Shown here one piece after another: positions 2,961-25,913 of a stretch of DNA of 32,000 nt (its first letter is position 1; every line of letters starts with the position of its first letter). The translations under genes were made by a program, and so were the position numbers. The notes under the pieces were generated by a model that made no database searches, was not told where the DNA came from, and saw only the letters and a program-made list of their open reading frames with translations. Location: assembly GCF_003351905.1 (NCBI RefSeq), contig NZ_CP022339.1:90001-122000 (forward strand), in the 5' to 3' direction. Source of the stretch: Candidatus Saccharimonadota bacterium. GTDB taxonomy: Bacteria > Bacteroidota > Bacteroidia > Cytophagales > Amoebophilaceae.

Positions 2961-3242
2961 GCATATACATAATATGTATGGATCTTACGGTGGTTGGTAT
3001 TGTATGTTTGATCTATAAAGCTTAAATTAACATAGAAATAGAATAAACTGGTTTTTTTCTATTTCATTCGGTTTGCACTACTATTCAAGTAGGGGAGCCA
3101 GATAAAAGTATAGATATGGGTGCGGGGAATCATAGAACTTTTGTCTTGGCTTTATTAGGCAGCAGATGGTACAAAACGATTTTTTTGCATCTCAATACTC
3201 CTTCTAAATCTATGCAATGGGCCGTTAAATACAAATATTGAT

Positions 3243-3728
3243 ATGCATACGAATACCGCTAAAGATTTTTCTTTTACCTTATTAGATGGCACTTTATTTA
3301 AGTTTTCTAATCAAGATGTTTTGGTAGTCAATACGGCTTCACAGTGTGGATTTGCCCGTCAGTTTAATGCATTACAGGAACTACATGATCGTTATCATGC
3401 CCAAGGCTTTACCGTGCTTGGGGTATCCTCCCAAAGCTTTCGTAAGCAAGAATTTGATCAGCCTTGTGAGATAGCTGCTGCTATAAAAAATAAATGTAAT
3501 AGGGTTACTTTTCCTATTACGCAGCTAGCAGCTGTTCGTGGAAAATCCATTCATCCATTTTATGCATGGGCTGCTACCCAAGTCTCTTTATTGGGGCGCC
3601 CAAAGTGGAACTTCCATAAGTATTTGATAGGTAAAGATGGCAGGTGCATCACATGGTTTTCTTCCGTAACTGATCCTTTAGCTCCAAACGTCATAGACGC
3701 AGTAGAAGCGGCACTAGCCAACCAGTAG
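3243..3728 (+). CDS. Glutathione peroxidase family protein (Cys-type)
   Basis: 161 aa. VNTASQCGF carries the peroxidatic Cys in the GPx context. SSQSFRKQE matches the NQFG.QEP region. WNFHKYLIGKDG matches the WNF.KFL signature. Confidence 0.85.
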   Translation: MHTNTAKDFSFTLLDGTLFKFSNQDVLVVNTASQCGFARQFNALQELHDRYHAQGFTVLGVSSQSFRKQEFDQPCEIAAAIKNKCNRVTFPITQLAAVRGKSIHPFYAWAATQVSLLGRPKWNFHKYLIGKDGRCITWFSSVTDPLAPNVIDAVEAALANQ

Positions 3729-3812
3729 TGCTGCGCTCAATAGCCTCAATTTAAGAACGATATATTATTGATTATTCAATCAAATAGCATTTTTTATCGT
3801 ATCTGTTCAAAC

Positions 3813-3960
3813 CACTGTTTTTTACATTAAAAAAACAACGCCCTTGTAAGATGGCACTTTCAGTGGATTTTTACCGAGGGGTTGATTTTTTGTCCACTTT
3901 TTTATCAAGAAAAAAGTGGGATATAACTCATTATTAACCAGTATCGTGAACGACAGATAC
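3813..3960. repeat. Dispersed intergenic repeat, copy A (short form), with internal palindrome ccactttttt-atcaag-aaaaaagtgg
   Basis: Near-identical to 18652-18764 over about 110 bp (actttcag.g..tttttaccgagggg.ttgattttttgtccacttttttatcaagaaaaaagtgg....tcattattaaccagtatcgtgaacg..acagatac). The upstream part (cactgtttttt..aaaaaacaacgcccttgtaa) also matches 18517-18556. Confidence 0.8.
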
Positions 3961-4051: not shown

Positions 4052-6145
4052 ATGACCTATGATGATGCTTCTAAAATCTACGTAAGCAATCGTAAGGACA
4101 CTATTGTTTGTTCCAGTTGTATCGCTTCTTTGGTTCAAAAGTTGTTCTCTACAATTTTTTTCATTGTACTATGTCGCAGTTGTCTGTTATACATTGTAGG
4201 CTTCAGCTGTAACTGCAACAATAGTGATGCAACCTCTGCGGCTGATATTACTCCATCACGACATCATGTGACCCAACCCCACTGTTTAGGCACTGTAACT
4301 ACGTTGGGCACAAATGACCCAATTGGCTATATTATAGAAGAGCGTCGCCTACTTGATCCAAAAAGTAAATGGAAGCAAGACCAACTAAAAAGCACCCCAA
4401 AAGTAATATTCCATCTGCATGATCAGGAATCCATCGCGCTCCCTGATGGTGCAGTGCCCAATTGGCAAGCGTATGGGATAGCGCCCTTTATGTTTTGTCA
4501 GATCAAAAGTTTAGGCGATAAACATATTGTTGCTTTGGATTTGAATGGCGCTAAATTTCAAAATGGTGAACAATTGGGTTTTATATTCGTGAAAAATAAC
4601 CGAACGCTAGTTGATGTGATGCAGCATTTGATAGGGTGTCCTGATCAATCCTATGCCTGTAGGCAGATCAAAGATGGTTTGATCCTCCCTGGCGTTGTCA
4701 GCGGATATCTATTGCAATCTGAATCTATTTTAAATAGATCTATAGATTTAAATAGTTATTCGAATGGCTATTGCTATATTAAAAAAGGTGATCATTACTG
4801 TTTTATTCCCTTAAAAAATAGCGTTCCTGAAGTTAAACTAGTACAGCCAGTAGCTGGTTCATCGTATAACAGCATACTCCCAACAAACATACAACCATCA
4901 TTATTAGAAAATAGGATAGATGCACCGCCTGTACGTCCTTTATTTTTAAAAAATGACGCGCCATCGGCTGCCTTATCTATGGTTCATGAGGAAGCTGTTA
5001 CAGATAGGTCTATGCAAACGAATGATATAGAATCCGCTCCGCTCAACCTATTAGGAGGTGTAGGTGGCGGTCTGTATAGTGATAAGGCAGCGCACAATAA
5101 TGGTTTATCCGAAGCCATGCGCGCAGAAAAAATCATCCAGATGAAGCAAAAAGCCTTGAATAAGATAGTAAAAAAGATAGCAACCTATACCATCATCCAC
5201 GAGCAAGTTATAAAAACCATACAAAAAATAAATTTAGACAAGGTCGTATTAAATGATATAGTGCAAAACCACTTTAAACCAAATGTTGGCAGCACGTTAC
5301 AATTGGTGTTCAATCCGGTATTGCAAGCGATAAGCCAATTGCAAGCTGCATTGATATTAGAAAAAAGTTGCCAACTCGGTATAGAATATAGTAGGCCCAC
5401 CTATCTTAGCGATCAATGCAGTGCACTAATAAAACAATTAAGAAATTTAGAAGTAGCTATATGTGAGGAATATTTCGAAATCTTATCTACAGAAATCTTA
5501 CTGCATCAGGTAATAGAATTTTTCGAAAGTATGTATGATTTACTCCTTTACATCAGACGCTTATACATTCTGAATCCAACAGATCGCATGCGGCAATGTG
5601 TCAAACAATTGTACATTGAAGATGATAGGCAATCCAAAACGGCGCAAGTCATCATAGAACAGCTAGAAAAACTAGAAGATGAGCAACTCAGTATGGTCCG
5701 AGAGGTAAGAAAAATAGCCTCAAAAAGAGCAGGAACACTAGTAGCGATACAAGATGCCGTCACCTTAGTACGTAATCCATTGGAAAATGCAATACATACC
5801 ATACGCGCATTAGATTTAAGAATCAAGCTGAGGCTAAACTTAAACGTTATAGTAGGGAAGGTGAAAAACCTTAAGCGCCTCAAAGAGATTATAGCAGATT
5901 TAGACTTAGCCAAGGAGTATATATGCGCCATACGAGTGCGTGTACATGATCCCACTTTAAAGATACTAAAAGCAGCCATAGCAAAACAGATACAAACAGC
6001 CACAAATGAGGCATTAAAGCTAGCAAATAAACTTGAAACAAATTTGCGATCAAAAACAAATAGTATGGTCGATCAGGAAAAAGTACTTAAAACACTATTG
6101 CCAACAATAGATGCCTGTGATGATGCTGGGTATGAAGCAGCATAA
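4052..6145 (+). CDS. Hypothetical protein, probable lipoprotein with a long C-terminal helical/coiled-coil half
   Basis: 697-aa ORF. The N-terminus has a hydrophobic stretch ending in a lipobox-like IVGFSC. The C-terminal roughly 350 aa are rich in heptad-like L/I/K/E/Q. No recognisable catalytic motif. Antisense ORFs inside it are shadows. Confidence 0.6.
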   Translation: MTYDDASKIYVSNRKDTIVCSSCIASLVQKLFSTIFFIVLCRSCLLYIVGFSCNCNNSDATSAADITPSRHHVTQPHCLGTVTTLGTNDPIGYIIEERRLLDPKSKWKQDQLKSTPKVIFHLHDQESIALPDGAVPNWQAYGIAPFMFCQIKSLGDKHIVALDLNGAKFQNGEQLGFIFVKNNRTLVDVMQHLIGCPDQSYACRQIKDGLILPGVVSGYLLQSESILNRSIDLNSYSNGYCYIKKGDHYCFIPLKNSVPEVKLVQPVAGSSYNSILPTNIQPSLLENRIDAPPVRPLFLKNDAPSAALSMVHEEAVTDRSMQTNDIESAPLNLLGGVGGGLYSDKAAHNNGLSEAMRAEKIIQMKQKALNKIVKKIATYTIIHEQVIKTIQKINLDKVVLNDIVQNHFKPNVGSTLQLVFNPVLQAISQLQAALILEKSCQLGIEYSRPTYLSDQCSALIKQLRNLEVAICEEYFEILSTEILLHQVIEFFESMYDLLLYIRRLYILNPTDRMRQCVKQLYIEDDRQSKTAQVIIEQLEKLEDEQLSMVREVRKIASKRAGTLVAIQDAVTLVRNPLENAIHTIRALDLRIKLRLNLNVIVGKVKNLKRLKEIIADLDLAKEYICAIRVRVHDPTLKILKAAIAKQIQTATNEALKLANKLETNLRSKTNSMVDQEKVLKTLLPTIDACDDAGYEAA

Positions 6146-6475: not shown

Positions 6476-7873
6476 ATGGGTGTTTTAAATCTACCTCTGT
6501 TGATGGTAGCGACTTTTTTGTTATTAACCTTGGGTATAGGGCTATGTTTTACGAAGATCTCTACTTCATTTCGGGAATATGCTTTAGGGGATCAAACGTG
6601 GCATACGGCACCTTTGATGGGTACATTATTGACGCTTATCTATGGAGGAGGGAGGTTAATGGTTGGCGTAGAGCAGGTACATAATTTTGGACTTGCTTGG
6701 GTCTTTTTTATACTTTTTACTAGTTTTTTGCCACATTGGGTAATCAGCTGGTTGGCATTACGTATGACACCATTTATGCGTAACCTCTCTATGTCAGAGA
6801 GTATAGGCCGTGTGTATGGTACCTATCCGAGAATAATTACTGGGTTAGCTAATATTTGTTTTGCCATTGCTACCATTGCTATTCAAATCAATGTAATGTC
6901 TCGGTCCATCAGTATGTGTATAGATGTCGAGCATTCGCGTATGATCACCAGTTTGGTTATCTTGGTTTTGTTTATCTATTCCCGTATTGGCGGCATGCGT
7001 ATTATTACTTTTATAGATATCGCACAAACCTTTGTCTTTTTTCTGATTATTCCCTTTCTTGCTTTCTCGATATTTGAGGCAACGGGTAGACCTGACGTGC
7101 TCTCTTTTTTGCGCACGCAAGAAAGTTTTCAGTTTCATACGTTGTTTCAATTTGAACCCAACCAATTGGCCATTTTTACCCTCTTCCTCTCTAGTCTGGT
7201 GTCCAGTATCAATCCTCCGATTATACAGAGAATTTATATGTCTGCCGATTGCTTTCAAGCCGGTATGGTTTTCTTTTTCACCGGTTGTTTGAGTCTGTTT
7301 ATCGCTTTATTTATCATATTGCTGGGTCTATATACTTTTGTCGCTGCACCGCATCTATCAGTGGCAGAGGTTTGGCACTATATCATAGCTCATATTTCAC
7401 CTGTTTGTAAAGGTTTTGTGGTTATAGGCTTGCTGGCTATGGCTATGTCTACAGCTGATACTTACTTAAATAGTTGTGCTGTTATGTTTAGTAATGATAT
7501 AGCAAGCAGTATGATGGCTAAAAAGTCATTTCCCTACCCTATTCAGCTTAGGTTAGCTAAGGTAATTGCACTTTTTATAGGCATTATTACGGTGCTATTC
7601 AGTTTGTATTGTAGTGATCTATTTGCCTTATTGAAGTTTCGTTTTGATTGTTTTATTCCTATCGTAATTGCTCCTTTTATCTTAGCTGTTTTGGGGTTTA
7701 GGGGTGGTTCATCTACTGCTTTGATGGGCATGGCTGCAGGCACCGTGACCATTTTGGCTTGGAATAGGTGGGTTGAGCCAGCTACAGCTATGAATGGTTC
7801 TTTTATAGCTATGGTAGTTAATGGGCTTGTTATGAGGGTTGTACATTATGTGTCTCTTAAACTAAAAACATAA
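6476..7873 (+). CDS. Sodium:solute symporter (SSS) family transporter, paralog 1 (transporter only)
   Basis: 465 aa with about 12-13 hydrophobic segments. Shares FREYALG, YSRIGGMRIITFIDIAQ (compare Y.t.GG.RA...D..Q of PutP/PanF) and AMAMSTADTYLNSCAVMFSNDI. Collinear similarity to the N-terminal 465 aa of the next gene. Confidence 0.8.
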   Translation: MGVLNLPLLMVATFLLLTLGIGLCFTKISTSFREYALGDQTWHTAPLMGTLLTLIYGGGRLMVGVEQVHNFGLAWVFFILFTSFLPHWVISWLALRMTPFMRNLSMSESIGRVYGTYPRIITGLANICFAIATIAIQINVMSRSISMCIDVEHSRMITSLVILVLFIYSRIGGMRIITFIDIAQTFVFFLIIPFLAFSIFEATGRPDVLSFLRTQESFQFHTLFQFEPNQLAIFTLFLSSLVSSINPPIIQRIYMSADCFQAGMVFFFTGCLSLFIALFIILLGLYTFVAAPHLSVAEVWHYIIAHISPVCKGFVVIGLLAMAMSTADTYLNSCAVMFSNDIASSMMAKKSFPYPIQLRLAKVIALFIGIITVLFSLYCSDLFALLKFRFDCFIPIVIAPFILAVLGFRGGSSTALMGMAAGTVTILAWNRWVEPATAMNGSFIAMVVNGLVMRVVHYVSLKLKT

Positions 7874-8098
7874 ATCGTGGAAGTCCAGTTTGGTAGGTTG
7901 CGTAGGTTGGTTGCTGAGTTGCCTTCTTTGAGGAGGTACGTATAGTAATTTTTTATATCATGGTTTGCGTGTATGTGATTTTGGGTCTAGGAAAAAGTAG
8001 CGTATAAAGCTCTATGTTTGATTTTTAACTAGAAATACGTACCATTAAATGTAGCAACCGCTATCATTTATATTATAATCTTTTTAATTGTTTGCTTT

Positions 8099-11000
8099 AT
8101 GATCTGTTTGAATATGTCCCTATTTATAGTGGCTGCTTTTTTATTATTAACCTTAATAGTAGGTGGCTACTTTAGTAGAAAAAAAACCACCTTTCGAGAA
8201 TATGCAGTGGGGCATAAACAGTTTGCGACGGCTACTTTGGTAGCTACCGTATTGGCTACTTTTTTTCAAGGGGGTGGGTTGGTACGTAATATAGAATGTG
8301 TCTATGATCTTGGCTTGTGGTTTACAGTTATTTTGCTTTTGGTGCCTCTTGGCATGTGGAGCACTAGCAGATTTGCATTGCGTATGGGGCCATTTATGCA
8401 ACACCTCTCTCTGGCAGAAACAATAGGTAGTATTTATGGTACGTATGCAAAGGTTATCACTGTTTTGGTTAGCATTTGTTGTAATATCCTCCTAATTACT
8501 TCTCAAATCGTCATTGTCTCCCAAACTATTGGCATTTGTGTAACTTTAGATAACCCTTATGTAATTCCTGTTCTTTCCACCTCAATCCTTATTTTTTATT
8601 CTACCTTTGGGGGGGGCCGCGCGGTTACCTTGACAGATGTGTTCCAATTTATCACTTTTTCCATTGTTATTCCTTTGCTTTGTTGGTTTGCCTTTGCAAA
8701 AATAGGAAAACCAGTTGCAACCATTGTTCCTATACTACAGAGTCACACTAAGTTTCAGTTTACCCACTTATTTCACTCTAATAACCAGCTAATTCATATA
8801 GTACTACTGTTGTTAGCTGATATACCGAGTAGTATAGTAGCTTCTCCTCTTACGCAACGGGTCTATATGGCTGCTAGTCCTATTCAAGCCCAAAAAGTTT
8901 TTTCGTATGCTGCTATTTTTAGTTTTATTATTCAGGTTTTTATAGTTTTAATTGGTCTATTTATTTTTGTCGGGGCATCAAACTTACCCAAAGTAGAAAT
9001 TTGGCCCTATATAATGGGCCATATCCCTCCTCTTTTTAAAGGATTTGTTGCCAGTATACTCGCTATGGTGATGTCTACTGCTGATTCTTGCTTAAATACT
9101 TGTGCGGTTATGGTCAGCCATGATATAGCAAAAAGCCTAATAAAACAAAAAAAGATTAGTGATTCCACTCAGCTTAAAATAGCCAGGTGGACTACACTAA
9201 CGGTGGGCCTATTATCTATGGTCATAACTTTTAAGTATAATGATTTGTTAAAATTAATGTATTGGGGCCTTAACTGTCGGGTACCTATACTAACCGCTCC
9301 TTTTATTTTAGCTGTTTTTGGTTTTCGGGGTACTCCTCGAACGGCTTTAGTAGGTATGACTACAGGTGCATGCACTATTTTAGCGTGGAACAAATGGATT
9401 AAACCTGCAATAGAGATAGATGGTTCTTTTATGGCTATGGTGGCCAATGGATTAGCGATGCTAGCGGCCCATTATCTACTGAAGCAGCCAAAAAGTGCTG
9501 GGTGGGTGAAACCAGATCATGAGTTTAAACAAGTACAACAAGCCCATGCGCGCAATAGAGCGGAGCGAAGGGAGATGATTAAAAATGGTTGGGCCAATAG
9601 AAAATCCACTTTGTCTAAGCTGATACCTAGTGATGCTGCCTTACGTTTAACAGGGCTTTATGTGGTCATTACGGCTATTCTAGGTTATTGGTTTATTAGG
9701 CCAGATCATATCTATTGGGCGATATGTCAAGGCCTTGTGGGTGCCCTGCTTACATCTTCTAAAACCTTTTTTAGCAGCGCAATTCCCGCCTGGTGTATTG
9801 GTTTGGGCTGGCTTATAGGGTTAGTGGTTTATCTGCCTCTGAGTCTGCTTGGACACTGGTGGTATCTTGTAGATCCGATCTTTACCGCATCTTTGTCTTT
9901 GGCCCATTGTGCTGTAATCCTATGGGTTTTGCCACTCCATCTGGGCATAGGGGTTGTTACCACTACCTTATTAATAGCCATTTATCCTATGGCTATTGGA
10001 TTGACTTTGCCAGTATTGTCTGCTTTATTTCCGCTGTTCATAGCAGGCTTAGTGGTATTTGCTATGGCTATTTACTTTAAGGTAAAGGTACGCAATTACA
10101 CCACTCAAATTCTTTACTTAAAAGATCAAGAAGGGATTAGAGAAGCACAACAACTGAAAGCCTCTCTTTATGATTCGGGTACGGTTCCTGCTACTATAGT
10201 TAATAAGTCTAAGGGTTATGGCGCTATTTTAACACAAGTAGTCGGTAAGATTGAAGAATCTATTTCTTTTTTAGATAGCAATGTGCCACTTTATAAGCAA
10301 GATTTTCAGAGTATTATTAATAAATTGTATGATTGGGTGGCCTATTTTAATAGAAGAGAAAGGGCCAAAAAACATGCCCTGCTGCAGCCTACTAAAATTA
10401 CTTTAGATAAACTGATACGTAAGGTAGAATTGGCGTTAGGCCAAGAGGTAGCGCATCCGCCTAGGTTGTTGATAGAAAAGATAAACGATTCCAATGGAGC
10501 GCCATCTCCGCATATGGTATGTGATATCAATCAAATTGCCTATTTACTGGTGCAGGCTGTGTTACGTGTTGGTAAACGAGCGGGTACATCAATTGTTCAT
10601 ATACGTTTCCATAATACTGCTTTACAGTTTAAGCAAGCCGATGCTATTGACAACAGCTATCCTCTATCCATGCTTTTTCAAGCTACTGCCCTGGTAGTCA
10701 GTCAGGCTACTACTCTCCCTGAAGTGATGGTCAAAGTAAAACCTGTCTATGATGATGAGATAGATATGATGGGCCATCAAGGAAAACAGGACACACCACC
10801 CTCTATAGATCTTCAACAGGAAACCATATCCAGTATTGTGGGGGGGCATTATGGCCATTTAGAAATCTTCGATGGCGAGCAGCAGCCAGCTATGCTACTG
10901 GTATTGCCTAGTAATGTCACTGATATTCTTAGTAAAATAACGATTAACTTACCTCTAGATGAGTTAACCTTAGAGACCCCTGTCACCCCTAAGGAACAAG

Positions 11001-11644
11001 CCGATTCCATGATGGCATTAATGCAGTTCCATGATCATGTTAGTAGATCTTCTCATCGAGCGGATCCTATTGATATAGGTATTATTTCAGGGTTGCTTTT
11101 ATTGCTGCGGCAGCATTTTGGCTTTAAGCGACATGCTTCGGGTCAATTGTTTTATGTACGTGCGGTAGGTATTGCGGAAATAGTCGTAAAATGGGTATTT
11201 CACTCTCCTAAGGTGATTTATGCTGCTTTGCTCTATGAGTTGGTGCGTCGTACCTGTTTGCCGCTTTCTTATGTCAAGGAACATTATAATTTAGGCGTAT
11301 ATGCTTTTGTATTGAATGTAGTAGGCATAGATAAACGGCAAGCATTGGATCATCCTTCTTTGCTGTATGTGCAAAATCGATTGCAAGAAGCAATTAAGGA
11401 GGAACATGTACAGCTTTCCGTTCTTTTTATCAAACTAGCCGAGCGGCTCTATGACCTACGTCATGCAGCAGGTTATAGCCATCTCTCAGAAGTACAACAT
11501 ATGGCGCAAGAAACCCTGACCATAGATGTGGAGTTAGCCAATGCCTACTTGGGCCCAGAGATAGGCGTGGCACTAGAAAAAGCAGCCAAACAGGCATTAG
11601 AACTGGGCAAACATAGACGAAAGGATCAAGATAATGAGCTATGA
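8099..11644 (+). CDS. SSS-family transporter domain fused to an extra TM block, a degenerate histidine-kinase-like module and a degenerate RelA/SpoT-type HD domain
   Basis: 1181 aa (alternative start at the ATG at 8114, MSLFIV). SSS motifs: FREYAVG, YSTFGGGRAVTLTDVFQ, AMVMSTADSCLNTCAVMVSHDI. A second TM cluster lies at about 9640-10080. HK-like tail: VCDINQIAYLLVQAVLRVGKRAG ... ISSIVGGHYGHLEIFDGEQQPAMLLVLP. SpoT-like region: HASGQLFYVRAVGIAEIV..AALLYELVRRT..FIKLAERLYDLRH..AQETLTIDVELANAYLG. Confidence 0.8.
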   Translation: MICLNMSLFIVAAFLLLTLIVGGYFSRKKTTFREYAVGHKQFATATLVATVLATFFQGGGLVRNIECVYDLGLWFTVILLLVPLGMWSTSRFALRMGPFMQHLSLAETIGSIYGTYAKVITVLVSICCNILLITSQIVIVSQTIGICVTLDNPYVIPVLSTSILIFYSTFGGGRAVTLTDVFQFITFSIVIPLLCWFAFAKIGKPVATIVPILQSHTKFQFTHLFHSNNQLIHIVLLLLADIPSSIVASPLTQRVYMAASPIQAQKVFSYAAIFSFIIQVFIVLIGLFIFVGASNLPKVEIWPYIMGHIPPLFKGFVASILAMVMSTADSCLNTCAVMVSHDIAKSLIKQKKISDSTQLKIARWTTLTVGLLSMVITFKYNDLLKLMYWGLNCRVPILTAPFILAVFGFRGTPRTALVGMTTGACTILAWNKWIKPAIEIDGSFMAMVANGLAMLAAHYLLKQPKSAGWVKPDHEFKQVQQAHARNRAERREMIKNGWANRKSTLSKLIPSDAALRLTGLYVVITAILGYWFIRPDHIYWAICQGLVGALLTSSKTFFSSAIPAWCIGLGWLIGLVVYLPLSLLGHWWYLVDPIFTASLSLAHCAVILWVLPLHLGIGVVTTTLLIAIYPMAIGLTLPVLSALFPLFIAGLVVFAMAIYFKVKVRNYTTQILYLKDQEGIREAQQLKASLYDSGTVPATIVNKSKGYGAILTQVVGKIEESISFLDSNVPLYKQDFQSIINKLYDWVAYFNRRERAKKHALLQPTKITLDKLIRKVELALGQEVAHPPRLLIEKINDSNGAPSPHMVCDINQIAYLLVQAVLRVGKRAGTSIVHIRFHNTALQFKQADAIDNSYPLSMLFQATALVVSQATTLPEVMVKVKPVYDDEIDMMGHQGKQDTPPSIDLQQETISSIVGGHYGHLEIFDGEQQPAMLLVLPSNVTDILSKITINLPLDELTLETPVTPKEQADSMMALMQFHDHVSRSSHRADPIDIGIISGLLLLLRQHFGFKRHASGQLFYVRAVGIAEIVVKWVFHSPKVIYAALLYELVRRTCLPLSYVKEHYNLGVYAFVLNVVGIDKRQALDHPSLLYVQNRLQEAIKEEHVQLSVLFIKLAERLYDLRHAAGYSHLSEVQHMAQETLTIDVELANAYLGPEIGVALEKAAKQALELGKHRRKDQDNEL

Positions 11645-11753
11645 TCAGGTGGCTGGTAACCGTCAGCTGACCTGTTGGCGCCATGCTTTGATCTATTTTT
11701 AAGGCCACTATACTTTATAACTATTTTCGAACCATTTTTTCTATTAGAAACAA

Positions 11754-14219
11754 ATGACTACACCCACTTTACCACCACATTACAACTTTGTAGAACGAGA
11801 AACATATTGGCAACATTTTTGGGAAGCAGCAGCGCTATATAGTTGGGACCCAACTGATCCAGATACTTTTGTGGTAGATACACCTCCCCCTACCATTTCC
11901 GGACAGCTGCACGTAGGCCATGCTTGTAGCTATGCACAAGCCGATTTTATCGTTCGATTTCAACGCATGTTGGGTAAAAATATTTTTTATCCAATGGGTT
12001 TTGATGACAATGGGTTACCCACGGAGCGGTTGGTAGAAAAACAAAAAGGTGTTCGCGCAGCCCATATGGATAGAACGGCTTTCATAAAATTATGTCAGGA
12101 AGTAGTGGATAGGGAAGAAGAAAAGTTTAGGCATCTTTTTAAGGCCATGGCGCTTTCTGTGGATTGGAGTTTAGAATACCAGACGATTAGTCCACTATCT
12201 CGTAAGCTTTCACAGATGTCTTTTTTGGACCTTTTGAAAAAAGGGGAGGTATACCGTAGTGCGCAACCGATGTTGTGGGATCCAGTAGATGGTACTGCTT
12301 TGGCACAAGCTGATATTGAAGACCAGGAGCGCACCACCTATATGAATGACATTCTATTTCTACATGAAGCGACGCAAGCCCCTTTACCCATTGCTACGAC
12401 TCGACCTGAATTATTGCCTGCCTGCGTGGCCTTATTCTACCATCCGGATGATATGCGTTACCAACATTTGGCGCACACCTATGCCCTGACACCTATATTT
12501 AATATGAGGGTGCCTATTTTAGCAGATGTGCTTGTGCAGCCCAATAAGGGAACCGGTTTGGTGATGTGTTGCACCTTTGGAGACCAAACCGATATAGTGT
12601 GGTGGAAGAAACACCAATTGCCTACTTGTATCATCCTAAATAAACAAGGCAGGGTAACCCATGTTGGTCCATTGCAAGGCCTTAAGGTAACAGAAGCACG
12701 CGAAAAAATCATTCAAATCTTAAAGGATCAGTCGTTGTTGGTTAAGCAAACGCTTGTGCAGCAATCTGTCAAGTGTGCAGAACGTTCTGGTGCACCTTTA
12801 GAAATACGCACTACACCTCAGTGGTTTGTGCGTACCATAGATCATAAAGCCGCCCTTTTAGCTAAGGTCAAACAACTCAAATGGCACCCTGCTGCCATGC
12901 AGCATAGGCTGGAGGAATGGATTGCTGGCATCGCTTGGGATTGGTCTATAAGCCGTCAGCGCTATTTTGGGGTGCCTTTTCCGGTTTGGTATTCTAAACG
13001 TTCTGGGGAAGAAGGAAAGATATTGGTGCCCACTGTAGATCAGTTGCCTGTAAACCCACTTGAAGATCTACCCATAGGCTATACCCGTGAAGAGGTAGAA
13101 CCAGACTATGATGTAATGGATACTTGGGCAACGAGCAGTATTTCGCCCCAACTCTCTTCGCATGCGATTAATAAGGAGTCTAGCGTAGACTATAATAGGC
13201 ACCTGCAGTTGTTCCCTATGGATTTGCGCCCACAAGCCCATGAGATTATACGGACTTGGGCTTTCTATACTTTACTCAAAGCCCATTTGCATGAGGATAG
13301 TCTGCCCTGGAACCATATTATGATCCATGGATGGTGCCTAGCGTCAGATAAGCAAAAGATGTCTAAGTCTAAAGGTAATGTGTTGCTGCCTGAAAAGCTT
13401 TTAACTACCTATGGGGCGGATGTCATCCGCTATTGGGCCGCTAACGCCCGTTTGGGTGCAGATACTTGTTATTGTGAAAATGTGATGAAAAATGGCAAAC
13501 GGTTGGTGACTAAATTATGGAATGCCGGTAAGTTTATCTTGGGCCATTTTGATAAAATAGAAGGTTTAGGTCAACCACTTCAGTGGCAAAAAGTCACCCA
13601 TACCCTAGATCGATGGCTCTTAGAATCCCTAGCCGCACTGACTGATAAGGTGCATGCACATTTGTTAGCCTATGGCTATGCAGAGGCGTTGGAACAGGTA
13701 GAAAAATTCTTTTGGTCTGTTTTTTGTGATGACTATCTAGAGCTTAGTAAAGCTAGGGTTTATAATGCACTGCAGCAAGATCCGCAAGGTCAGTATAGTG
13801 CTATGGTAACACTTTACCATGCTTTTTATGGTCTATTGCAACTTTTTGCTCCTATTTTGCCTCATATTACAGAGGAACTGTCTCAGGGATTGTATCCCCA
13901 TAAAGGTTCTATTCATCAAAGAGGCAATTGGCCCACGTGGAGATTAGAGACGACCATTCCTCAAGCGCAAGTGGATCAAGTCGTGCACCTTAGGGAAATC
14001 ATTGGATTGGTACGTAAAGCCAAAGCAGATGGTCAACTTTCTATAAAAGCGCCGATTCAGTTGCTTACCATTAGCGGTACAGTTTTAGATGAAGATATAT
14101 ATCAAGACCTTAAAGCGGTCACTGCTGCTACCGAGATCGTATTCGGCGATCTAACCTCAAGCCCTATGGATATACAAGTAGTGGGTAAGCAGTGTGGCAT
14201 AGGGGTAGTGTGGGGGTAG
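11754..14219 (+). CDS. valS: Valine--tRNA ligase, short archaeal/rickettsial-like type
   Basis: 821 aa. HIGH motif: [17 protein letters not shown]. Also [13 protein letters not shown], editing-domain motif [30 protein letters not shown] and KMSKSKGN. It lacks the long C-terminal coiled coil of canonical bacterial ValRS. Confidence 0.9.
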
Positions 14220-14251
14220 GGAAGGTATCTGTTCAATTCACTACACATCAG

Positions 14252-15412
14252 ATGCCATTGAGCAAAGCACAAACAAATAGCCAGGCGGGCATCTACCTGC
14301 ACATCCCATTTTGCAAGCAAGCTTGCCACTATTGTGACTTCCATTTTAGTACTAATTTGTCTTTTAAGTCATTAATGGTCCATAGCATCCAAAAAGAACT
14401 TGCATTACGTCAAGATTATTTGAAAGGCATACCCATTACCAGTATTTATTTTGGTGGTGGTACTCCTTCGTTATTAACGCTTGTAGAAATAGAGCAGCTG
14501 CTCAACCAAGTGGTACGTTGTTTTCCTATAGCGCCAGCAGCAGAGATCACATTAGAGGCCAATCCTGATGACTTAACGCTTGAAAAATTGCAAGGATTGA
14601 ACCATATGGGTGTAAATAGGCTTAGCATAGGCATACAGTCTTTTAATGATCAGGCACTGCGTTATATGAATAGGGCCCATACCAGTTCCATGGCCCAAAA
14701 TAGTGTAGCGTGGGCACGTACTGCTGGCTTTGATAACTTAAGTATAGATCTTATCTATGCCATTCCTGGTACTACTATGTGCGATTGGCATGCTGATTTA
14801 ACACAAGCCCTATTGTTGGAACCAGCGCATATTTCTACCTATTGTTTGACCATTAAACCTAAAACTGTATTTGGCTATTGGCATAAACAAGGTAGTCTGG
14901 TGGAGCTAGATGAAACTTTCGCAGCAGAACAATTTGAACGAACTGTAGCAGCTTGTGCTCAACAAGGTTATCTACATTATGAAATTTCTAATTTTTGCAA
15001 GCCAGAAAAATATTCTAGACACAATACAAATTACTGGAAATCAGGTCCATATATAGGTGTCGGACCAGGGGCACATGCCTATAATGGGCAGCAAAGACAA
15101 TGGAATATTGCTCATAATGCATTATATATTAAAGCCATTCAAAATGGGAAGCTACCTTATACGGAAGAAACCTTAACGGTAGCCAATCATGTAAATGAAT
15201 ATATGATGACCAGTCTAAGAACTTGTTGGGGATGTGATTTTGATTGGATTTATGCACAATATGGGATTGACCTTATGGCCATACAAAAAGATTATTTAGA
15301 AAAAATTATGCAATGGAAATTGGCCTATTTGACCGGCCATATACTTTATTTAACAAATAGTGGTAAATTACTAGCCGATAAAATAGCGAGTGATCTTTTT
15401 GTAGATGGATGA
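14252..15412 (+). CDS. hemW: Radical SAM heme chaperone HemW / oxygen-independent coproporphyrinogen-III oxidase-like protein
   Basis: Radical SAM cluster motif: GIYLHIPFCKQACHYCDF (CxxxCxxC). Also YFGGGTPS and the HemN-like C-terminal region. I place the start at the ATG at 14252 (MPLSKAQ..) rather than the listed 14192, which overlaps valS. Confidence 0.85.
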   Translation: MPLSKAQTNSQAGIYLHIPFCKQACHYCDFHFSTNLSFKSLMVHSIQKELALRQDYLKGIPITSIYFGGGTPSLLTLVEIEQLLNQVVRCFPIAPAAEITLEANPDDLTLEKLQGLNHMGVNRLSIGIQSFNDQALRYMNRAHTSSMAQNSVAWARTAGFDNLSIDLIYAIPGTTMCDWHADLTQALLLEPAHISTYCLTIKPKTVFGYWHKQGSLVELDETFAAEQFERTVAACAQQGYLHYEISNFCKPEKYSRHNTNYWKSGPYIGVGPGAHAYNGQQRQWNIAHNALYIKAIQNGKLPYTEETLTVANHVNEYMMTSLRTCWGCDFDWIYAQYGIDLMAIQKDYLEKIMQWKLAYLTGHILYLTNSGKLLADKIASDLFVDG

Positions 15413-21422: not shown

Positions 21423-24400
21423 CTACTCAGGTATCCAAAATAAAATAATTTCTTCTTGCATCCAAGGTAATTTAAGCTTATTCATAGACCAAGGAGGCAG
21501 TAAATCACCTGTATCGTGGTCCTGATGCATCATCGTTAAATGCCAAAATTTTTTCTCTGTAGTGTCATCAGCTTGGTGGCTGGTTAAAATACCTAATCTA
21601 TTTAAGAAATAGTCTTTTACTATCCTTTCCAGGGTAGCGTTTTGAAATGCATCGGTTTCTTGCAGTTTTGTTATGCTTTTCCAACGCTTTAGGACTTTTT
21701 CCATAAGCAGTTGGCTATTGGCTGATAGGATTGCCATTGTGTTACTAGATGTGGATGTTTCTGTTTCTATTTCTATTTTTGATGTAGTCCCGTCTTGGGA
21801 CGCTTGGAGCTGTTGGTCTGACGTAGTGCCCTTTTCTTCTACTTGATCATATATATCCTCCGTTTCATCTATAGGCTTATAGGGTAGCAATACTGCATCA
21901 TAAGATAATCCACAAAGTAGTTTAGGAAGGGTAAGCTGCCATTCGGGACTCTTTAGCTTACCTGTAACCAAATATTGTAAGAGATAGACTGCATTATGGG
22001 CTGCTTGGTCACAGAAAAATTGGTCGTCAACCATAAGATTGTTTAACTTGAAAAAATCATACAAAAAGGGCCATAGAAATACCAAGCCTGTATTTTTTGT
22101 ATATACCTGAACCGATGCTTCTGGTAGACGAACTTTTTGAGGTGATGTTTTTAGTGGCGCTTTTTCTAATGACTGATGGACTAAAGCTGACTGGGATGGG
22201 TGCATGTGCTTAATTAATGGCTTAAGTAAGGTGATCAGCTGATCTGCTTCCTGGTTCGTAGCCTTTGTATCGACAATTGAGGTAATGATTTTGTAAATAG
22301 TTCCTTGAGTATAGCAAGTGGTCAGTAAGGTACTGTGTACAAACTCTTGGGCTGCAAATGACTTTTTTGAAATTAAATAATGCATAATAGAAATGCAGAG
22401 TTCCTTTTTCCATGTGGATGGATGATGGAAGGGTATAGTTGTATCTAGCAATGGATGGTTTAAAAGAGTTAGGTAGTGCATGACAAATGGAGCGTTGTCT
22501 TTTGCTAAACAGGTTATAATTTTTGTAGTCACTTCTTCGCTAAAATAGTGGACTATGCGCCTGGCTGTTACTTGATGATTGTCCTGATCTGCTAGAAGTT
22601 TTGGTAATTCAAGTGGTTGGTCTTCCATAAATTGAATCAACTCATCGCCTAATCGCTCTATTGTTAGATGATACTGCTGGGCAAAAAGAGATAAGTTGCC
22701 ATTAAGCAGTAGATAAAGCTTGATTAAGATAGGTGCGTGGTATCCACGCTGCCTAGCTTGTTGTTGGAATACTTGACTATATTTTTCTTGTAGCCTGTTC
22801 AATGAAGCAGTTAACGTTTCTGGTATCTCCTTGGTATCAAGTAGTTGAAAAGTTGTTAGTAGGGTAGTTGGTGTAACTTCCAGTACGTTACTCAATTCAG
22901 TAGTAAGGTCCGCAAGCCAATCATCTGGTGCAATAGATGTCTGAGGTAGTGTTTTTAATACACCATCCCAAAATAAATTTTTAGTCATATTTTGCTCGCC
23001 TAGTGCACCTTGTGTGTCACACCACCATTGATAGCTCCCTTGTATGAAGGTTGTTAACGTTTTACCTATTGCACTATGTCTTTGAATCAATTGCATCAGT
23101 TGCGTATGGGTAAAATTTGCGATAAGGCGTTGCCGCACATGTGCTTTATCTTGGGCTAAAGAAAAAGTAGAAAGGTGTGTGAGCACATCACTTAACAAGG
23201 CTGTTGCATCTGTATAATTTCCAAGCTTACCCGTATGCAAAAAGAGGTGCCATCTTTCTATAATCCTCTTTTTTTTGCCTAGTATCACATCGGCAATCTG
23301 TTTGTAGAGCGTGATGCGCATCGTTTCCTGTAATGGTAGGTTGGGTAAGTGTTGTGCAACCAATTGGTCGATGATGGAGGGAGATAGCTCAACAGATTGG
23401 CGTACCATCTCTTTAATAGCTGGTAGTAGCCTACTATAGTAAAGTGGTACAAGAGCTTGGTCTAATGTTTCATGTGTAGATAGAAACATTAGATCCACTT
23501 CATCTATTTTAGTTAGTTTTAATGGCGTTAACTTCTCTTTGAGGAAAGAAAAAATCTCTACCAGCTGGTAATCGGTTTCCTCTCTGGCTGCATCAATTAA
23601 CGCATCACATAAACGGGTTGGGGGAGATGCAGTTTGTGCGCTCAGATGGAATACGATACGCTCTATATATTGTTTTTCTGGTGGAGTTTCTCTAATTGCG
23701 GCAGCAATAAAAATTTCTTTAATGGAACGGATATGGCCCTGTTGCTGGGTGCGCTGCAACACTTGCATCATGACCCTTTCTAGGCGATCCAGCATCTGAT
23801 GGGAACAAGGGACAAAGGCCTGCAATAGTTTGGCTACAGTGATCTCTGTAGCATGTTGCATGAGCTTTTTTAAAATGGTTGCTTCTTGGCACCAAGGTGC
23901 TAATTGATCTCTTATCTGTTTGGGTGTGGCACGCTCCAAACACTTAGCTATGAAGTAGGCTGGCACCAACTGATCATTTGGCAATACATTATCAACAAGA
24001 AAATCCACTACATCTGCCAATGGATGGTTATGGGTACCATCTAAACGAGTGGTGTGCTGCTTGGTTTGCGATGCGTCAACCGGTTTTGATGTGCTATAGG
24101 TTTGTACTATATAGCTCTCTTGGTCTACTTTAGGTGACACACGCGCCAAACATGCTGCTAGATCTGGATAGGCTTTCTGTTCTGCTATATCAGATAGTCG
24201 GTCACATAATGCGTCAGCAGATAAGGAGGTATAAGGCGCTAGATAACCTATCACACGTCCTATATATTGCCTAGTAGATGGCGCATCCACGGCTGCTGTA
24301 ATAAACATATTTTTGAGATGGTCTATGTTTGCTTGGCATTCAGTAGATTCAAGGAATGCAATCAGAACGGTTTCGAGTTTAGGTAGCCACTCCATTGAAA

Positions 24401-25913
24401 GAGGAATGGATGCTGGCAAGCTGTGCTGTATGATAGGCGGCTGCATAGCCGCTTTGTTATTTGCATCAGGCATAACAGGCCAAAGGCACGTGGTCTCCTT
24501 GGGCATCTCTGATGATAAGGTCGATATGGATACCAGTGGGGCTATTATAGCTTTTATAGCTGGGTTATAGGTTTGAGTAGTTAGCAATTTGGCGCATTGT
24601 TGCGGGCTGATTACACCATTGGCCATATGTGTTCTAAACAACGCGTGCATCTCTTCAAGATAAAATGTTTTAGAATGTTCAAAGGCACAATAGGCTAAAG
24701 TCATAGCTTTAATCGCACAAGCAGGTGTGGTGGCAGCAGTAGTAGCCGTTGCGATTTGCATACAATCAGAAAATATACCTACAATAGAAGGATCTATAGA
24801 GGCTAAGCAGGCAACAAAGAGCCTATCAGGTAAGTTTTGAACCAACTTTTCCCTATTTTTTGCTTCCTGCAGCCAGCTTTTTACTAGAGGTCGTATACCT
24901 GTTCGGTCCATTGCCCGTTTCATACTACCTATAGCGGCTGATAGTTGATGGGGCGCCATGCCATTATTGGCTATTTTGTCCAATTCTTTTACTATTTGTT
25001 CCTTATTTTTGATACTTTCATACCCGAATTTTAGTGGCGTTATCGCTAGGTCACGCAACTGAAGCACCAATGCTTTCGTAGTGGAGTCAAATGAGGGTTT
25101 TTTTTCATTTTGTGCGTAATAAATCTGTAATGCTTCTAGCATTTTTTCGTAGCTGGTAGAGGTTTGTAGGGCGACTTGCTTGAGGAGCATGCGCAAAAAA
25201 CCCATTCGGTCTACTTTGCCTCTTGGTTGGTTGATGATACTCAATAGAGTCGTTGCAAACAATTGCTTCGTATCTAACAAGTTGGTTGCAACCCTCTTTT
25301 GTTGTAACAATATTCCTATTTCAGTTAGGATAGGCTTAAAGTAAGCTATAGGTTGTTTCAATAAGCAGGAAAGAGTTCGCTCTACAGTAGACCGAGCAAA
25401 AAATGTCATACAACGTTGGACAGCTTTTTCCTTTTTATGCAGATCATACCAAAGCTGTTCTATAAGCAGAGGCGTGTAGTGCAGCAATTCTAGATATATT
25501 TTTTCAATTTGTTTTTCAGAACGTTCGATCATCCACCACGCCAAATGACCTTCTGATAAATAGTGTGCTATGGCTTGCCGTTTTGCCTCTGGTAGTGGGA
25601 TTACTGCAGTAGGGTTATGGATGACCTTACGCATCTGTTCTTGTAATTTAAGCATTAACACCTGTTCTACCTGACAAGGGAGTTGTTTGTCAAGGGTAGA
25701 TAGATATACGTCACCTCCATCTATAACCAGCTTGTCTAAATGGATGACTACATCACTAGGCACATATTGAGCAAAGAGTTTGGATAAAATGGGTATAATT
25801 CGTTTTTGGACAGCTTGCTGAACGGTGTGATAGAGCATGCTATTTTGACTATGCTGATCAATAGTTACTTCAATCCGACTACGTAGAATGACATGATGAT
25901 TTTTTGTAGGCAT
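21423..25913 (-). CDS. Giant helical protein resembling contractile-injection-system tape measure proteins (Afp14/Pvc14-like)
   Basis: 1496-aa ORF. N-terminus: HHVILRSRIEVTIDQ..IIPILSKLFAQYVPSDVVIHLDKLVIDGGDV. C-terminus: RLGILT..WHLTMM..DLLPPWSMNKLKLPWMQEEIILFW. Both match my recollection of the conserved termini of this family. Internal repeated helical modules are present. Family assignment is from memory and was not computed. Confidence 0.55.
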   Translation of the reverse strand: MPTKNHHVILRSRIEVTIDQHSQNSMLYHTVQQAVQKRIIPILSKLFAQYVPSDVVIHLDKLVIDGGDVYLSTLDKQLPCQVEQVLMLKLQEQMRKVIHNPTAVIPLPEAKRQAIAHYLSEGHLAWWMIERSEKQIEKIYLELLHYTPLLIEQLWYDLHKKEKAVQRCMTFFARSTVERTLSCLLKQPIAYFKPILTEIGILLQQKRVATNLLDTKQLFATTLLSIINQPRGKVDRMGFLRMLLKQVALQTSTSYEKMLEALQIYYAQNEKKPSFDSTTKALVLQLRDLAITPLKFGYESIKNKEQIVKELDKIANNGMAPHQLSAAIGSMKRAMDRTGIRPLVKSWLQEAKNREKLVQNLPDRLFVACLASIDPSIVGIFSDCMQIATATTAATTPACAIKAMTLAYCAFEHSKTFYLEEMHALFRTHMANGVISPQQCAKLLTTQTYNPAIKAIIAPLVSISTLSSEMPKETTCLWPVMPDANNKAAMQPPIIQHSLPASIPLSMEWLPKLETVLIAFLESTECQANIDHLKNMFITAAVDAPSTRQYIGRVIGYLAPYTSLSADALCDRLSDIAEQKAYPDLAACLARVSPKVDQESYIVQTYSTSKPVDASQTKQHTTRLDGTHNHPLADVVDFLVDNVLPNDQLVPAYFIAKCLERATPKQIRDQLAPWCQEATILKKLMQHATEITVAKLLQAFVPCSHQMLDRLERVMMQVLQRTQQQGHIRSIKEIFIAAAIRETPPEKQYIERIVFHLSAQTASPPTRLCDALIDAAREETDYQLVEIFSFLKEKLTPLKLTKIDEVDLMFLSTHETLDQALVPLYYSRLLPAIKEMVRQSVELSPSIIDQLVAQHLPNLPLQETMRITLYKQIADVILGKKKRIIERWHLFLHTGKLGNYTDATALLSDVLTHLSTFSLAQDKAHVRQRLIANFTHTQLMQLIQRHSAIGKTLTTFIQGSYQWWCDTQGALGEQNMTKNLFWDGVLKTLPQTSIAPDDWLADLTTELSNVLEVTPTTLLTTFQLLDTKEIPETLTASLNRLQEKYSQVFQQQARQRGYHAPILIKLYLLLNGNLSLFAQQYHLTIERLGDELIQFMEDQPLELPKLLADQDNHQVTARRIVHYFSEEVTTKIITCLAKDNAPFVMHYLTLLNHPLLDTTIPFHHPSTWKKELCISIMHYLISKKSFAAQEFVHSTLLTTCYTQGTIYKIITSIVDTKATNQEADQLITLLKPLIKHMHPSQSALVHQSLEKAPLKTSPQKVRLPEASVQVYTKNTGLVFLWPFLYDFFKLNNLMVDDQFFCDQAAHNAVYLLQYLVTGKLKSPEWQLTLPKLLCGLSYDAVLLPYKPIDETEDIYDQVEEKGTTSDQQLQASQDGTTSKIEIETETSTSSNTMAILSANSQLLMEKVLKRWKSITKLQETDAFQNATLERIVKDYFLNRLGILTSHQADDTTEKKFWHLTMMHQDHDTGDLLPPWSMNKLKLPWMQEEIILFWIPE

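Follow-up and report, generated by a model that had tools for sequence, protein, structure and literature searches.

The closest described systems are CbrA, CrbS, and RpuS, the SLC5/STAC kinases, in which an N-terminal domain of the SLC5 or sodium/solute symporter (SSS) family is fused to a cytoplasmic histidine-kinase fold and which follow the logic of a transceptor, the binding or transport of a solute being linked to a signal. CbrA both transports its ligand and signals (PMC7096432, PMC9100948). Transporters termed "SLC5sbd" and "SLC5sbd+HK" have also been described in Rickettsiales, with a proposed lateral spread to Amoebophilus and Cardinium (Driscoll et al. 2017, PMC5615194), and the "PutP" copies of Orientia bear the domains HisKA, HATPase_c, and REC (PMC10732058). 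Genome papers on these two symbionts have named separate pieces of the gene family treated here. Cardinium cEper1 has 12 such symporters of unknown function, all expressed and two of them in the top 25 genes (PMC5698495), and Amoebophilus has "19 putative sodium/solute symporters", also of unknown function, 5 of the 19 being among its 11 most highly expressed transporters (PMC8831229). Amoebophilus is further reported to carry "18 homologs of spoT", or of a sodium glucose cotransporter (PMC6232779), and an HD expansion in the "rickSpo" subgroup of small alarmone hydrolases, plus a long Rel (Atkinson 2011, PMC3153485), while many fragments of the family were reported in another Cardinium (PMC12039267). 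Here, we analyzed a gene at positions 8099 to 11644 (plus strand) of a 32,000-nucleotide window of DNA (positions 90,001 to 122,000 of contig NZ_CP022339.1), whose product joins an SSS transporter, a bundle of six transmembrane (TM) helices, a pseudo-histidine-kinase, and a Rel/SpoT-type HD domain with all of its catalytic residues replaced. The best reading of the data is that this Cardinium fusion descends from a transporter-coupled alarmone hydrolase.

The open reading frame (ORF) at 8099-11644 is uninterrupted and complete and encodes 1181 amino acids (aa) plus a stop codon. Its product is 100% identical to a protein annotated as "sodium:solute symporter family protein" in the Cardinium endosymbiont of the insect Sogatella furcifera (cSfur, 1.10-Mb contig), which is a reduced intracellular symbiont of the Bacteroidota (Amoebophilaceae). 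An earlier interpretation made from the letters alone, hereafter the sequence-only reading, had proposed the same four parts in an organism with a reduced regulatory repertoire; the identity of the source agrees with the latter, and the parts were all recovered by the searches and the structure model described below, including the kinase-like and HD_4-like assignments for which domain searches and structure prediction had been recommended. The full-length AlphaFold model (pLDDT 78, pTM 0.66) contains 19 TM helices overall, i.e., a 13-TM symporter core followed by the six-helix bundle.

The transporter core (residues 1 to 465; 8099-9493, plus strand) was found by sequence and by structure. Pfam SSF (PF00474) matched residues 101 to 423 (E value of 4.9e-12, 45.9 bits against a cutoff of 22.8), TIGR00813 matched residues 35 to 423 (E value of 2e-19) with a score of 70 bits that lies under its curated cutoff of 184, and a profile built from 49 family members retrieved CHT1 (1e-21) and SiaT (3e-19) from the PDB, along with vSGLT, SGLT1/2, NIS, and SMCT. 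In the model, the core comprises 13 TM helices within residues 6 to 460, which Foldseek superimposed on SiaT (5nva) with a TM-score of 0.82 and a root mean square deviation of 3.4 Å and matched to CHT1 with an E value of 1e-13. The motif M325-S326-T327-A328-D329-S330 in the ninth TM helix is almost invariant across the family. A basic cytoplasmic linker (residues 466 to 510; 9494-9628, plus strand), modeled with a basic amphipathic helix at residues 474 to 499, then leads into the extra six-TM bundle (residues 511 to 660; 9629-10078, plus strand), which is evident from hydropathy and has modeled helices at residues 512-532, 535-558, 564-589, 593-610, 613-634, and 637 to about 660. The sixth of these helices runs unbroken into a cytoplasmic helix that extends to residue 692 in the model, and because the number of extra helices is even, the C-terminal domains stay cytoplasmic. 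No Pfam family matches the bundle. A profile of residues 466 to 665 matches proteins from the Rickettsiales, encoded by Megaera and by the Rickettsia plasmid pREIP, over its whole length at 51 to 64 bits, so the bundle is a conserved module rather than low-complexity filler.

The region following the bundle gave no match to Pfam HisKA or HATPase_c at an E value of ≤1, either in the 1181-aa protein or in eight distant homologues, and NCBIfam found no kinase in the 1181-aa protein either; the kinase assignment required a family profile plus a structure model. When compared with the PDB, a profile of this middle region (alignment A1, 33 sequences) matched ThkA (3a0r, 1e-5), ZraS (1.5e-3), and a VicK-like protein (0.014), and the ThkA alignment spans the dimerization and histidine phosphotransfer (DHp) domain together with the beginning of the catalytic and ATP-binding (CA) domain. 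Residues 660 to 1000 of the AlphaFold model (pLDDT of 74.7 overall and 80 to 94 in the alpha/beta, or CA, part) have the shape of a long helix, a helical hairpin, and an alpha/beta sandwich. The 50 best Foldseek matches to this region in the PDB were all histidine-kinase DHp-CA structures, with ZraS at the top (E value of 9e-10) and RetS, CckA, HK853, CpxA, and DivL among the others, all of which recurred with the full-length model. By Foldseek and profile, the region thus has both the DHp hairpin and the CA (GHKL) fold of a histidine kinase, distributed over a coiled signaling helix with a DHp-like hairpin (residues 661 to 760; 10079-10378, plus strand) and a CA-like pseudo-ATPase of the Bergerat/GHKL fold (residues 761 to 945; 10379-10933, plus strand).

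The residues on which kinase chemistry depends were lacking from this fold. The stretch aligned with the ThkA H-box (residues 688 to 706, modeled with low confidence) is variable and gapped and contains no histidine, and between residues 661 and 765, a single column, 759, where helix 2 ends, has a histidine in at least 30% of the sequences. In a column census of 100 sequences, the N-box position, residue 823, is Arg in 55, Tyr in 18, and His in 11, with Asn absent from the six commonest residues, and no conserved Gly is present in the G1-equivalent (864-872) or G2-equivalent (901-907) stretches. Residues that mark the fold are kept, namely D809 (98 of 100 sequences) and A-H-Y-G at positions 916 to 919 (93 to 100 of 100, with H917-Y918-G919 in 97 to 100). 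A functional histidine kinase was rejected, as neither the phosphoacceptor His nor the ATP-binding motifs were found. Throughout the Amoebophilaceae family, also where the hydrolase is live, the kinase part is a pseudo-kinase, and its fold would act as a scaffold or transducer and not as an enzyme.

A linker that is partly helical in the model (residues 946 to 995; 10934-11083, plus strand) separates the CA-like region from the C-terminal domain of the Rel/SpoT-type HD_4 fold (residues 996 to 1165; 11084-11593, plus strand). Pfam HD_4 (PF13328) matched residues 1005 to 1148 (E value of 1.1e-8, 35.4 bits against a cutoff of 27.2), and the family profile retrieved Rel hydrolase domains (5e-37) and Mesh1 (6e-15) from the PDB. 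Family profiles were needed here, since phmmer with the single 1181-aa sequence against the PDB returned a weak Mesh1 match alone (E value of 0.089). Distant relatives with 25 to 30% full-length identity keep the Rel/SpoT/Mesh1 motifs R-x-SGEPY-x-x-HP, LLHD-x-VEDT, and KLADRLHNMRT, which in the 1181-aa protein read KRHASGQLFYVRA, LLYELVRRT, and KLAERLYDLRH. The HP pair has become RA (R1022/A1023), HD has become YE (Y1047/E1048), ED has become RR (R1050/R1051), and ADRLHN has become AERLYD, with E1115 in place of the Asp and Y1118/D1119 in place of the HN pair. Thus, none of the two His metal ligands and two Asp ligands is left, and the same holds for the Glu-Asp pair of the catalytic site and for the His-Asn pair. 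A functional alarmone hydrolase was rejected, as the metal-binding and catalytic residues were not found. Where Mn2+ formerly bound, the site now holds two Tyr and two or three Arg residues, an arrangement with which a phosphorylated ligand could be bound without metal.

A census of the HD motifs in 218 family proteins separated 72 with all motifs intact (active type), 99 with one fixed replacement pattern (dead type), and 47 others. In the fixed pattern, H is replaced by R, P by A or S, H by Y, D is either kept or replaced by E or G, E is replaced by R, D by Y, H, or R, D by E, H by Y, and N by D. The 47 others include several independent partial degenerations, and since several members have partial losses of their own, the hydrolase site was lost more than once in the family. 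Differing partial losses of the HD catalytic residues are found in P0114, P0167, P0192, P0195, P0234, P0249, and P0253; P0114, the sole one of these to be placed, lies inside the active-type clade of a neighbor-joining tree built from residues 1 to 990, i.e., with the HD region left out. In the same tree, 84 dead-type proteins and one near-variant group together in one clade, apart from the active clade. This grouping points to a single ancient loss of the dead-type hydrolase site and not to ongoing decay. The cytoplasmic output had been called doubly inactivated in the sequence-only reading, which holds for the clade of the 1181-aa protein and fails for its sister members with an intact hydrolase.

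The dead domain is also the most strongly conserved. The 84 full-length dead-type proteins have a mean pairwise identity of 0.65 for the HD-like domain, against 0.55 for the SSS core and 0.35 to 0.49 for the other parts, and among four paralogs within the Cardinium cSfur genome, it reaches 0.82 in the HD-like domain and 0.58 in the SSS core. Because the HD-like domain is the best-conserved part of a family that has diverged to 40 to 70% identity, despite total catalytic loss, this pattern is the sequence signature of a pseudoenzyme that would have retained a noncatalytic role.

A first homologue search returned 190 relatives. Nearly all of the best 120, which were listed, are from Cardinium, with several paralogs per genome; among these listed relatives, one C. 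hertigii strain has at least 12 family copies, and truncated copies are common. The Cardinium cSfur genome has at least five paralogs (P0001, P0010, P0038, P0049, and P0057). Searched against 1.84 billion cluster representatives (50% identity), the middle-region profile gave 367 matches at an E value of ≤1e-3 and 239 at ≤1e-10. The full-length matches are all 1110 to 1245 aa long with the middle region at about residues 660 to 1000, i.e., the layout is fixed. Chance can be ruled out for the four-part layout because it is common to more than 100 full-length homologues, and a recent fusion artifact or pseudogene was likewise rejected, given that this layout of 1110 to 1245 aa recurs in more than 100 proteins from many assemblies. 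The supposition that the architecture was undescribed proved only partly right: we found no paper on the four-part layout, the pseudo-kinase, the dead hydrolase site, or a functional test, whereas the pieces had been named in genome papers, as outlined above. The architecture is a large, lineage-typical, and partly noticed Amoebophilaceae family and not a singular oddity.

Active-type members were placed taxonomically from a few NCBI names and from the gene context of two contigs (L085 and L086); their contigs carry ankyrin-repeat, contractile-injection, and DUF1703-type genes, which are typical of Amoebophilaceae symbionts. Their HD domain is 40 to 47% identical to the HD regions of ordinary Rel/SpoT homologue (RSH) genes, in matches that cover the HD alone. 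A contig scan with the universal Rel/SpoT motifs yielded ordinary RSH genes of unrelated bacteria at 79 of 80 loci, and the other locus (L001) belongs to an Amoebophilaceae metagenome-assembled genome. The family owes its expansion to local duplication, as shown by the tandem arrangement of two active-type genes in L086; these genes (8001-11486 and 11492-14998, plus strand) lie only 5 bp apart. In the L085 symbiont contig, an active-type member directly adjoins a gene for a CIS_TMP protein of the contractile injection system. An active-type member of 1155 aa, with all hydrolase motifs intact, is also encoded on plasmid p_A of Cardinium DF, the D. farinae strain (L084, 4001-7468, plus strand), where it is divergently adjoined by a NUDIX hydrolase gene (3103-3852, minus strand). 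Since this plasmid carries an active-type copy, live and dead forms can coexist in the genus Cardinium.

When plasmids were searched by tblastn, the nearest relatives outside Cardinium were located on plasmids of Rickettsiales. A 931-aa protein from a Megaera polyxenophila plasmid combines SSF, HisKA, and HATPase_c and has an H-box (HETRTP) together with N, G1, F, and G2 boxes. A 981-aa protein from the Rickettsia plasmid pREIP (L082, 4001-6946, plus strand) comprises an SSS core, the 6-TM module, and a pseudo-kinase, and it aligns with the Megaera kinases over residues 2 to 838 with 36% identity. The SSS-core profile (residues 1 to 465) scored 448 to 472 bits against the Megaera and pREIP proteins, which it matched over its full length. 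SSS core, 6-TM module, and kinase fold thus follow one another in the Cardinium protein in the order seen in the Rickettsiales SLC5sbd+HK proteins. The middle region of the pREIP protein matched profile A1 in hhalign (probability of 91%, E value of 1e-6), with "AHFG" in place of "AHYG". The same comparison of the middle-region profile with a single Megaera kinase matched over the last 44 columns alone (probability of 10%), and because this direct match failed, the link of the family to canonical kinases goes via pREIP and structure.

Plasmid pREIP also carries a stand-alone HD_4 gene (L082, 2460-3080, minus strand) encoding 206 aa with all hydrolase motifs present, which scores 137 bits against the family HD profile. 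It is located about 1 kb from the gene for the SSS core, 6-TM module, and pseudo-kinase, with a GNAT gene in between. In this single case, the gene pair is an unfused counterpart of the Cardinium/Amoebophilus fusion. The data give a series from an SLC5-6TM-kinase protein to a pseudo-kinase beside a SpoT-like gene, then to the fused active type, and finally to the fused dead type; the ancestor of the module is a Rickettsiales-type SLC5+6TM+histidine-kinase protein to which a rickSpo-type hydrolase was joined.

Compared with CbrA and CrbS, the Cardinium protein differs in that the six-helix TM bundle connects the transporter to the kinase fold, and in its output, which is a Rel/SpoT-type HD domain and not phosphotransfer to a response regulator. 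Residues 466 to 700 gave no Pfam match, and hence no STAC domain was seen, in a Pfam copy whose inclusion of a STAC model was not verified; no PAS domain was detected. Membership in the CbrA/CrbS group was rejected, given the lack of an H-box and of ATP motifs, the different linker, and the absence of a response regulator among the scanned ORFs of the window. The Rickettsiales SLC5sbd+HK proteins are more similar, as they have an SSS core, a 6-TM module, and a kinase module at the same position and have likewise proliferated in obligate intracellular bacteria. However, a canonical kinase is retained in the versions from Megaera and Orientia, the latter with an added REC domain, and none of the Rickettsiales proteins has a C-terminal HD domain, that of pREIP being a separate neighboring gene. 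The rickSpo, Mesh1, and Rel/SpoT hydrolases share the HD_4 fold, and the active-type relatives keep their catalytic motifs, but small alarmone hydrolases are soluble and small, whereas the Cardinium HD domain is the C terminus of a 19-TM protein and has its catalytic residues replaced. RetS and DivL resemble the middle region in having a DHp-CA fold that lacks normal autokinase chemistry; their signaling works through contacts with proteins. Unlike the Cardinium protein, in which Pfam detects neither signature, RetS and DivL keep recognizable HisKA/HATPase_c signatures, and their kinase fold is not sandwiched between a transporter and an HD domain. A transporter joined to an alarmone hydrolase via a kinase-fold transducer is a combination not previously described, although transporter-fused sensors and small alarmone hydrolases are each known. 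The protein fits best as a variation on the theme of transporter-fused sensors, with an output derived from an alarmone hydrolase.

Taken as a whole, the protein could be a dimeric Na+/solute importer in which a noncatalytic C-terminal module regulates or reports transport, a mechanism to which we give about an even chance. The SSS core would be functional and abundant and would import a host metabolite coupled to Na+, as suggested by the high expression, the many diversified paralogs, and the conserved, presumed Na+-site motif. As in kinases, the DHp-like hairpin would hold the dimer together, and changes in the conformation of the transporter may be relayed via the 6-TM bundle and the continuous signaling helix to the cytoplasmic module. 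In the ancestral active type, the breakdown of (p)ppGpp or (p)ppApp at the membrane would be under the control of nutrient uptake. The hydrolase of the Cardinium chromosomal clade would have turned into a noncatalytic binding module, with Arg and Tyr filling the former Mn2+ site, and this dead module may sense a phosphorylated nucleotide, feeding back on transport, or dock a partner protein. The sequence-only reading had hypothesized a transceptor linking solute flux with the binding of an alarmone or with signaling between proteins.

Several points weigh against this mechanism. Substrate, transport, dimerization, and ligand binding are predictions, high expression speaks for transport only indirectly, and the AlphaFold model is a monomer and is silent on a predicted dimer. 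The stretch M325-S326-T327 resembles the M-S-T motif of PutP and is presumably the Na2-site Ser/Thr of PutP (S340/T341) and vSGLT (S364/S365), an equivalence assumed from residue numbers and not from a structure-based alignment. At least some functions of the family do not need the C-terminal module, as SSS-only paralogs, e.g., at 6476-7873, and many truncated copies show. The Rickettsiales link between a transporter gene and a separate hydrolase gene is a matter of one plasmid. Finally, if the Cardinium genome is without a (p)ppGpp synthetase, alarmone sensing becomes improbable, and the module would more likely bind a protein or have a purely structural role.

The same parts could also make a pure sensor, i.e., a transceptor without net transport whose SSS core binds solute and whose dead module signals by contact, as RetS and DivL do. 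In structure, these two proteins are among the nearest matches to the middle region, the dead clade is left without a catalytic output, and SLC5-fused sensors do exist, namely CbrA, CrbS, and RpuS. Nevertheless, we consider a pure sensor unlikely. Copy numbers of at least five in Cardinium cSfur, 12 in cEper1, and 19 in Amoebophilus, with expression in the top range, are unusual for sensors, and the presumed Na+-site motif and the entire LeuT-fold core are strongly conserved. No response regulator or obvious partner gene is present among the scanned ORFs of the window, and CbrA itself transports its ligand (PMC7096432).

Decay offers a different account of the missing residues, in which the protein would be a plain transporter and its C-terminal 520 residues a functionless relic being lost in a shrinking genome. 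The catalytic residues of both modules are indeed all gone, SSS-only and truncated copies are common, the 465-aa neighbor included, and many family fragments occur in another Cardinium (PMC12039267). Yet a relic would hardly leave the dead HD as the best-conserved domain among the 84 dead-type proteins, with 82% identity among the cSfur paralogs, nor a replacement pattern that is fixed and not random; ORFs of about 1180 aa are maintained across many paralogs and species, and the models are confident for both folds. We regard decay as distinctly improbable. The strong conservation of the HD-like domain, together with the persistence of two acidic positions as Glu (E1048 and E1115), could alternatively reflect an enzyme that still acts on another phosphorylated substrate through metal-independent or different-metal chemistry. 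Both His metal ligands are replaced (by R and Y), the ED pair has become RR, RH, or RY, and the HN pair has become YD, and we know of no HD-superfamily enzyme that works without the His/Asp metal site; such an altered enzyme is very improbable.

Beyond the importer with a noncatalytic regulatory module, a more far-reaching proposition would treat the family as a "Rosetta stone". The SLC5 transporter, the kinase-fold transducer, and the SpoT-like hydrolase would then form one unit in Amoebophilaceae and Rickettsiales, in which uptake of a host nutrient directly switches membrane-localized alarmone degradation, and in the Cardinium chromosomal clade, the direction would be inverted, with the pseudo-hydrolase serving as an alarmone or nucleotide receptor that gates import via its Arg and Tyr residues. 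This proposition is tentative and rather doubtful; if true, it would explain the joint proliferation of both gene families in the Rickettsiales amplified genetic elements (RAGE) of Orientia/Rickettsia, in Amoebophilus, and in Cardinium. More generally, a transporter-hydrolase fusion would wire nutrient uptake directly to the messenger of the stringent response. Few gene sets of Cardinium and Amoebophilus are as expanded or as highly expressed as this family, which also has relatives on mobile elements of Rickettsiales, and for these reasons, it probably matters to how these unculturable symbionts read and exploit the host cytoplasm. It further offers a graded natural series, from a canonical kinase to a pseudo-kinase, then with a live hydrolase and with a dead one, and because no domain is better conserved than the dead hydrolase, the passage from enzyme to binding module can be studied here in a clean case. 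The labels "sodium:solute symporter", "PutP", "HD domain-containing protein", and "spoT" each cover one fragment of these proteins and mislead metabolic reconstructions.

Immediately upstream of the fusion gene, the window contains an SSS-core-only paralog of 465 aa (6476-7873, plus strand), identified from the ORF list, Pfam, and alignment. It is 43% identical to residues 4 to 466 of the 1181-aa protein, keeps the MSTAD motif, and stops directly after TM13. The spacer between the two genes is 225 bp, which is insufficient for the C-terminal module; it was not translated or searched. This side-by-side arrangement of an SSS-only paralog and a full fusion mirrors the "SLC5sbd" and "SLC5sbd+HK" pairs reported in Rickettsia. 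Further upstream, a 697-aa ORF (4052-6145, plus strand) has no Pfam family, a subthreshold HisKA_2 match (E value of 0.011), and a C-terminal half that looks helical; it may encode a symbiont-specific or effector protein.

The scanned ORFs of the window included no receiver-domain protein, the scan having left out 27556-28620, 29282-30019, and 30436-31674, as well as the remaining genome. The other neighbors in the window, of housekeeping or symbiont-typical kind, include genes for DNA polymerase III alpha, glutathione peroxidase, a class-I aminoacyl-tRNA synthetase, a radical-SAM enzyme, an ABC exporter, and a tape-measure protein of a contractile injection system. The last of these (21423-25913, minus strand) is a 1496-aa protein with the CIS_TMP domain (E value of 2.4e-61) and belongs to the phage-derived secretion system known in Cardinium and Amoebophilus. 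The synthetase (821 aa; 11754-14219, plus strand) lies immediately downstream of the fusion gene, and the listed start of the following radical SAM/HemN_C ORF (14192-15412, plus strand) overlaps the final 28 nucleotides of the synthetase ORF.

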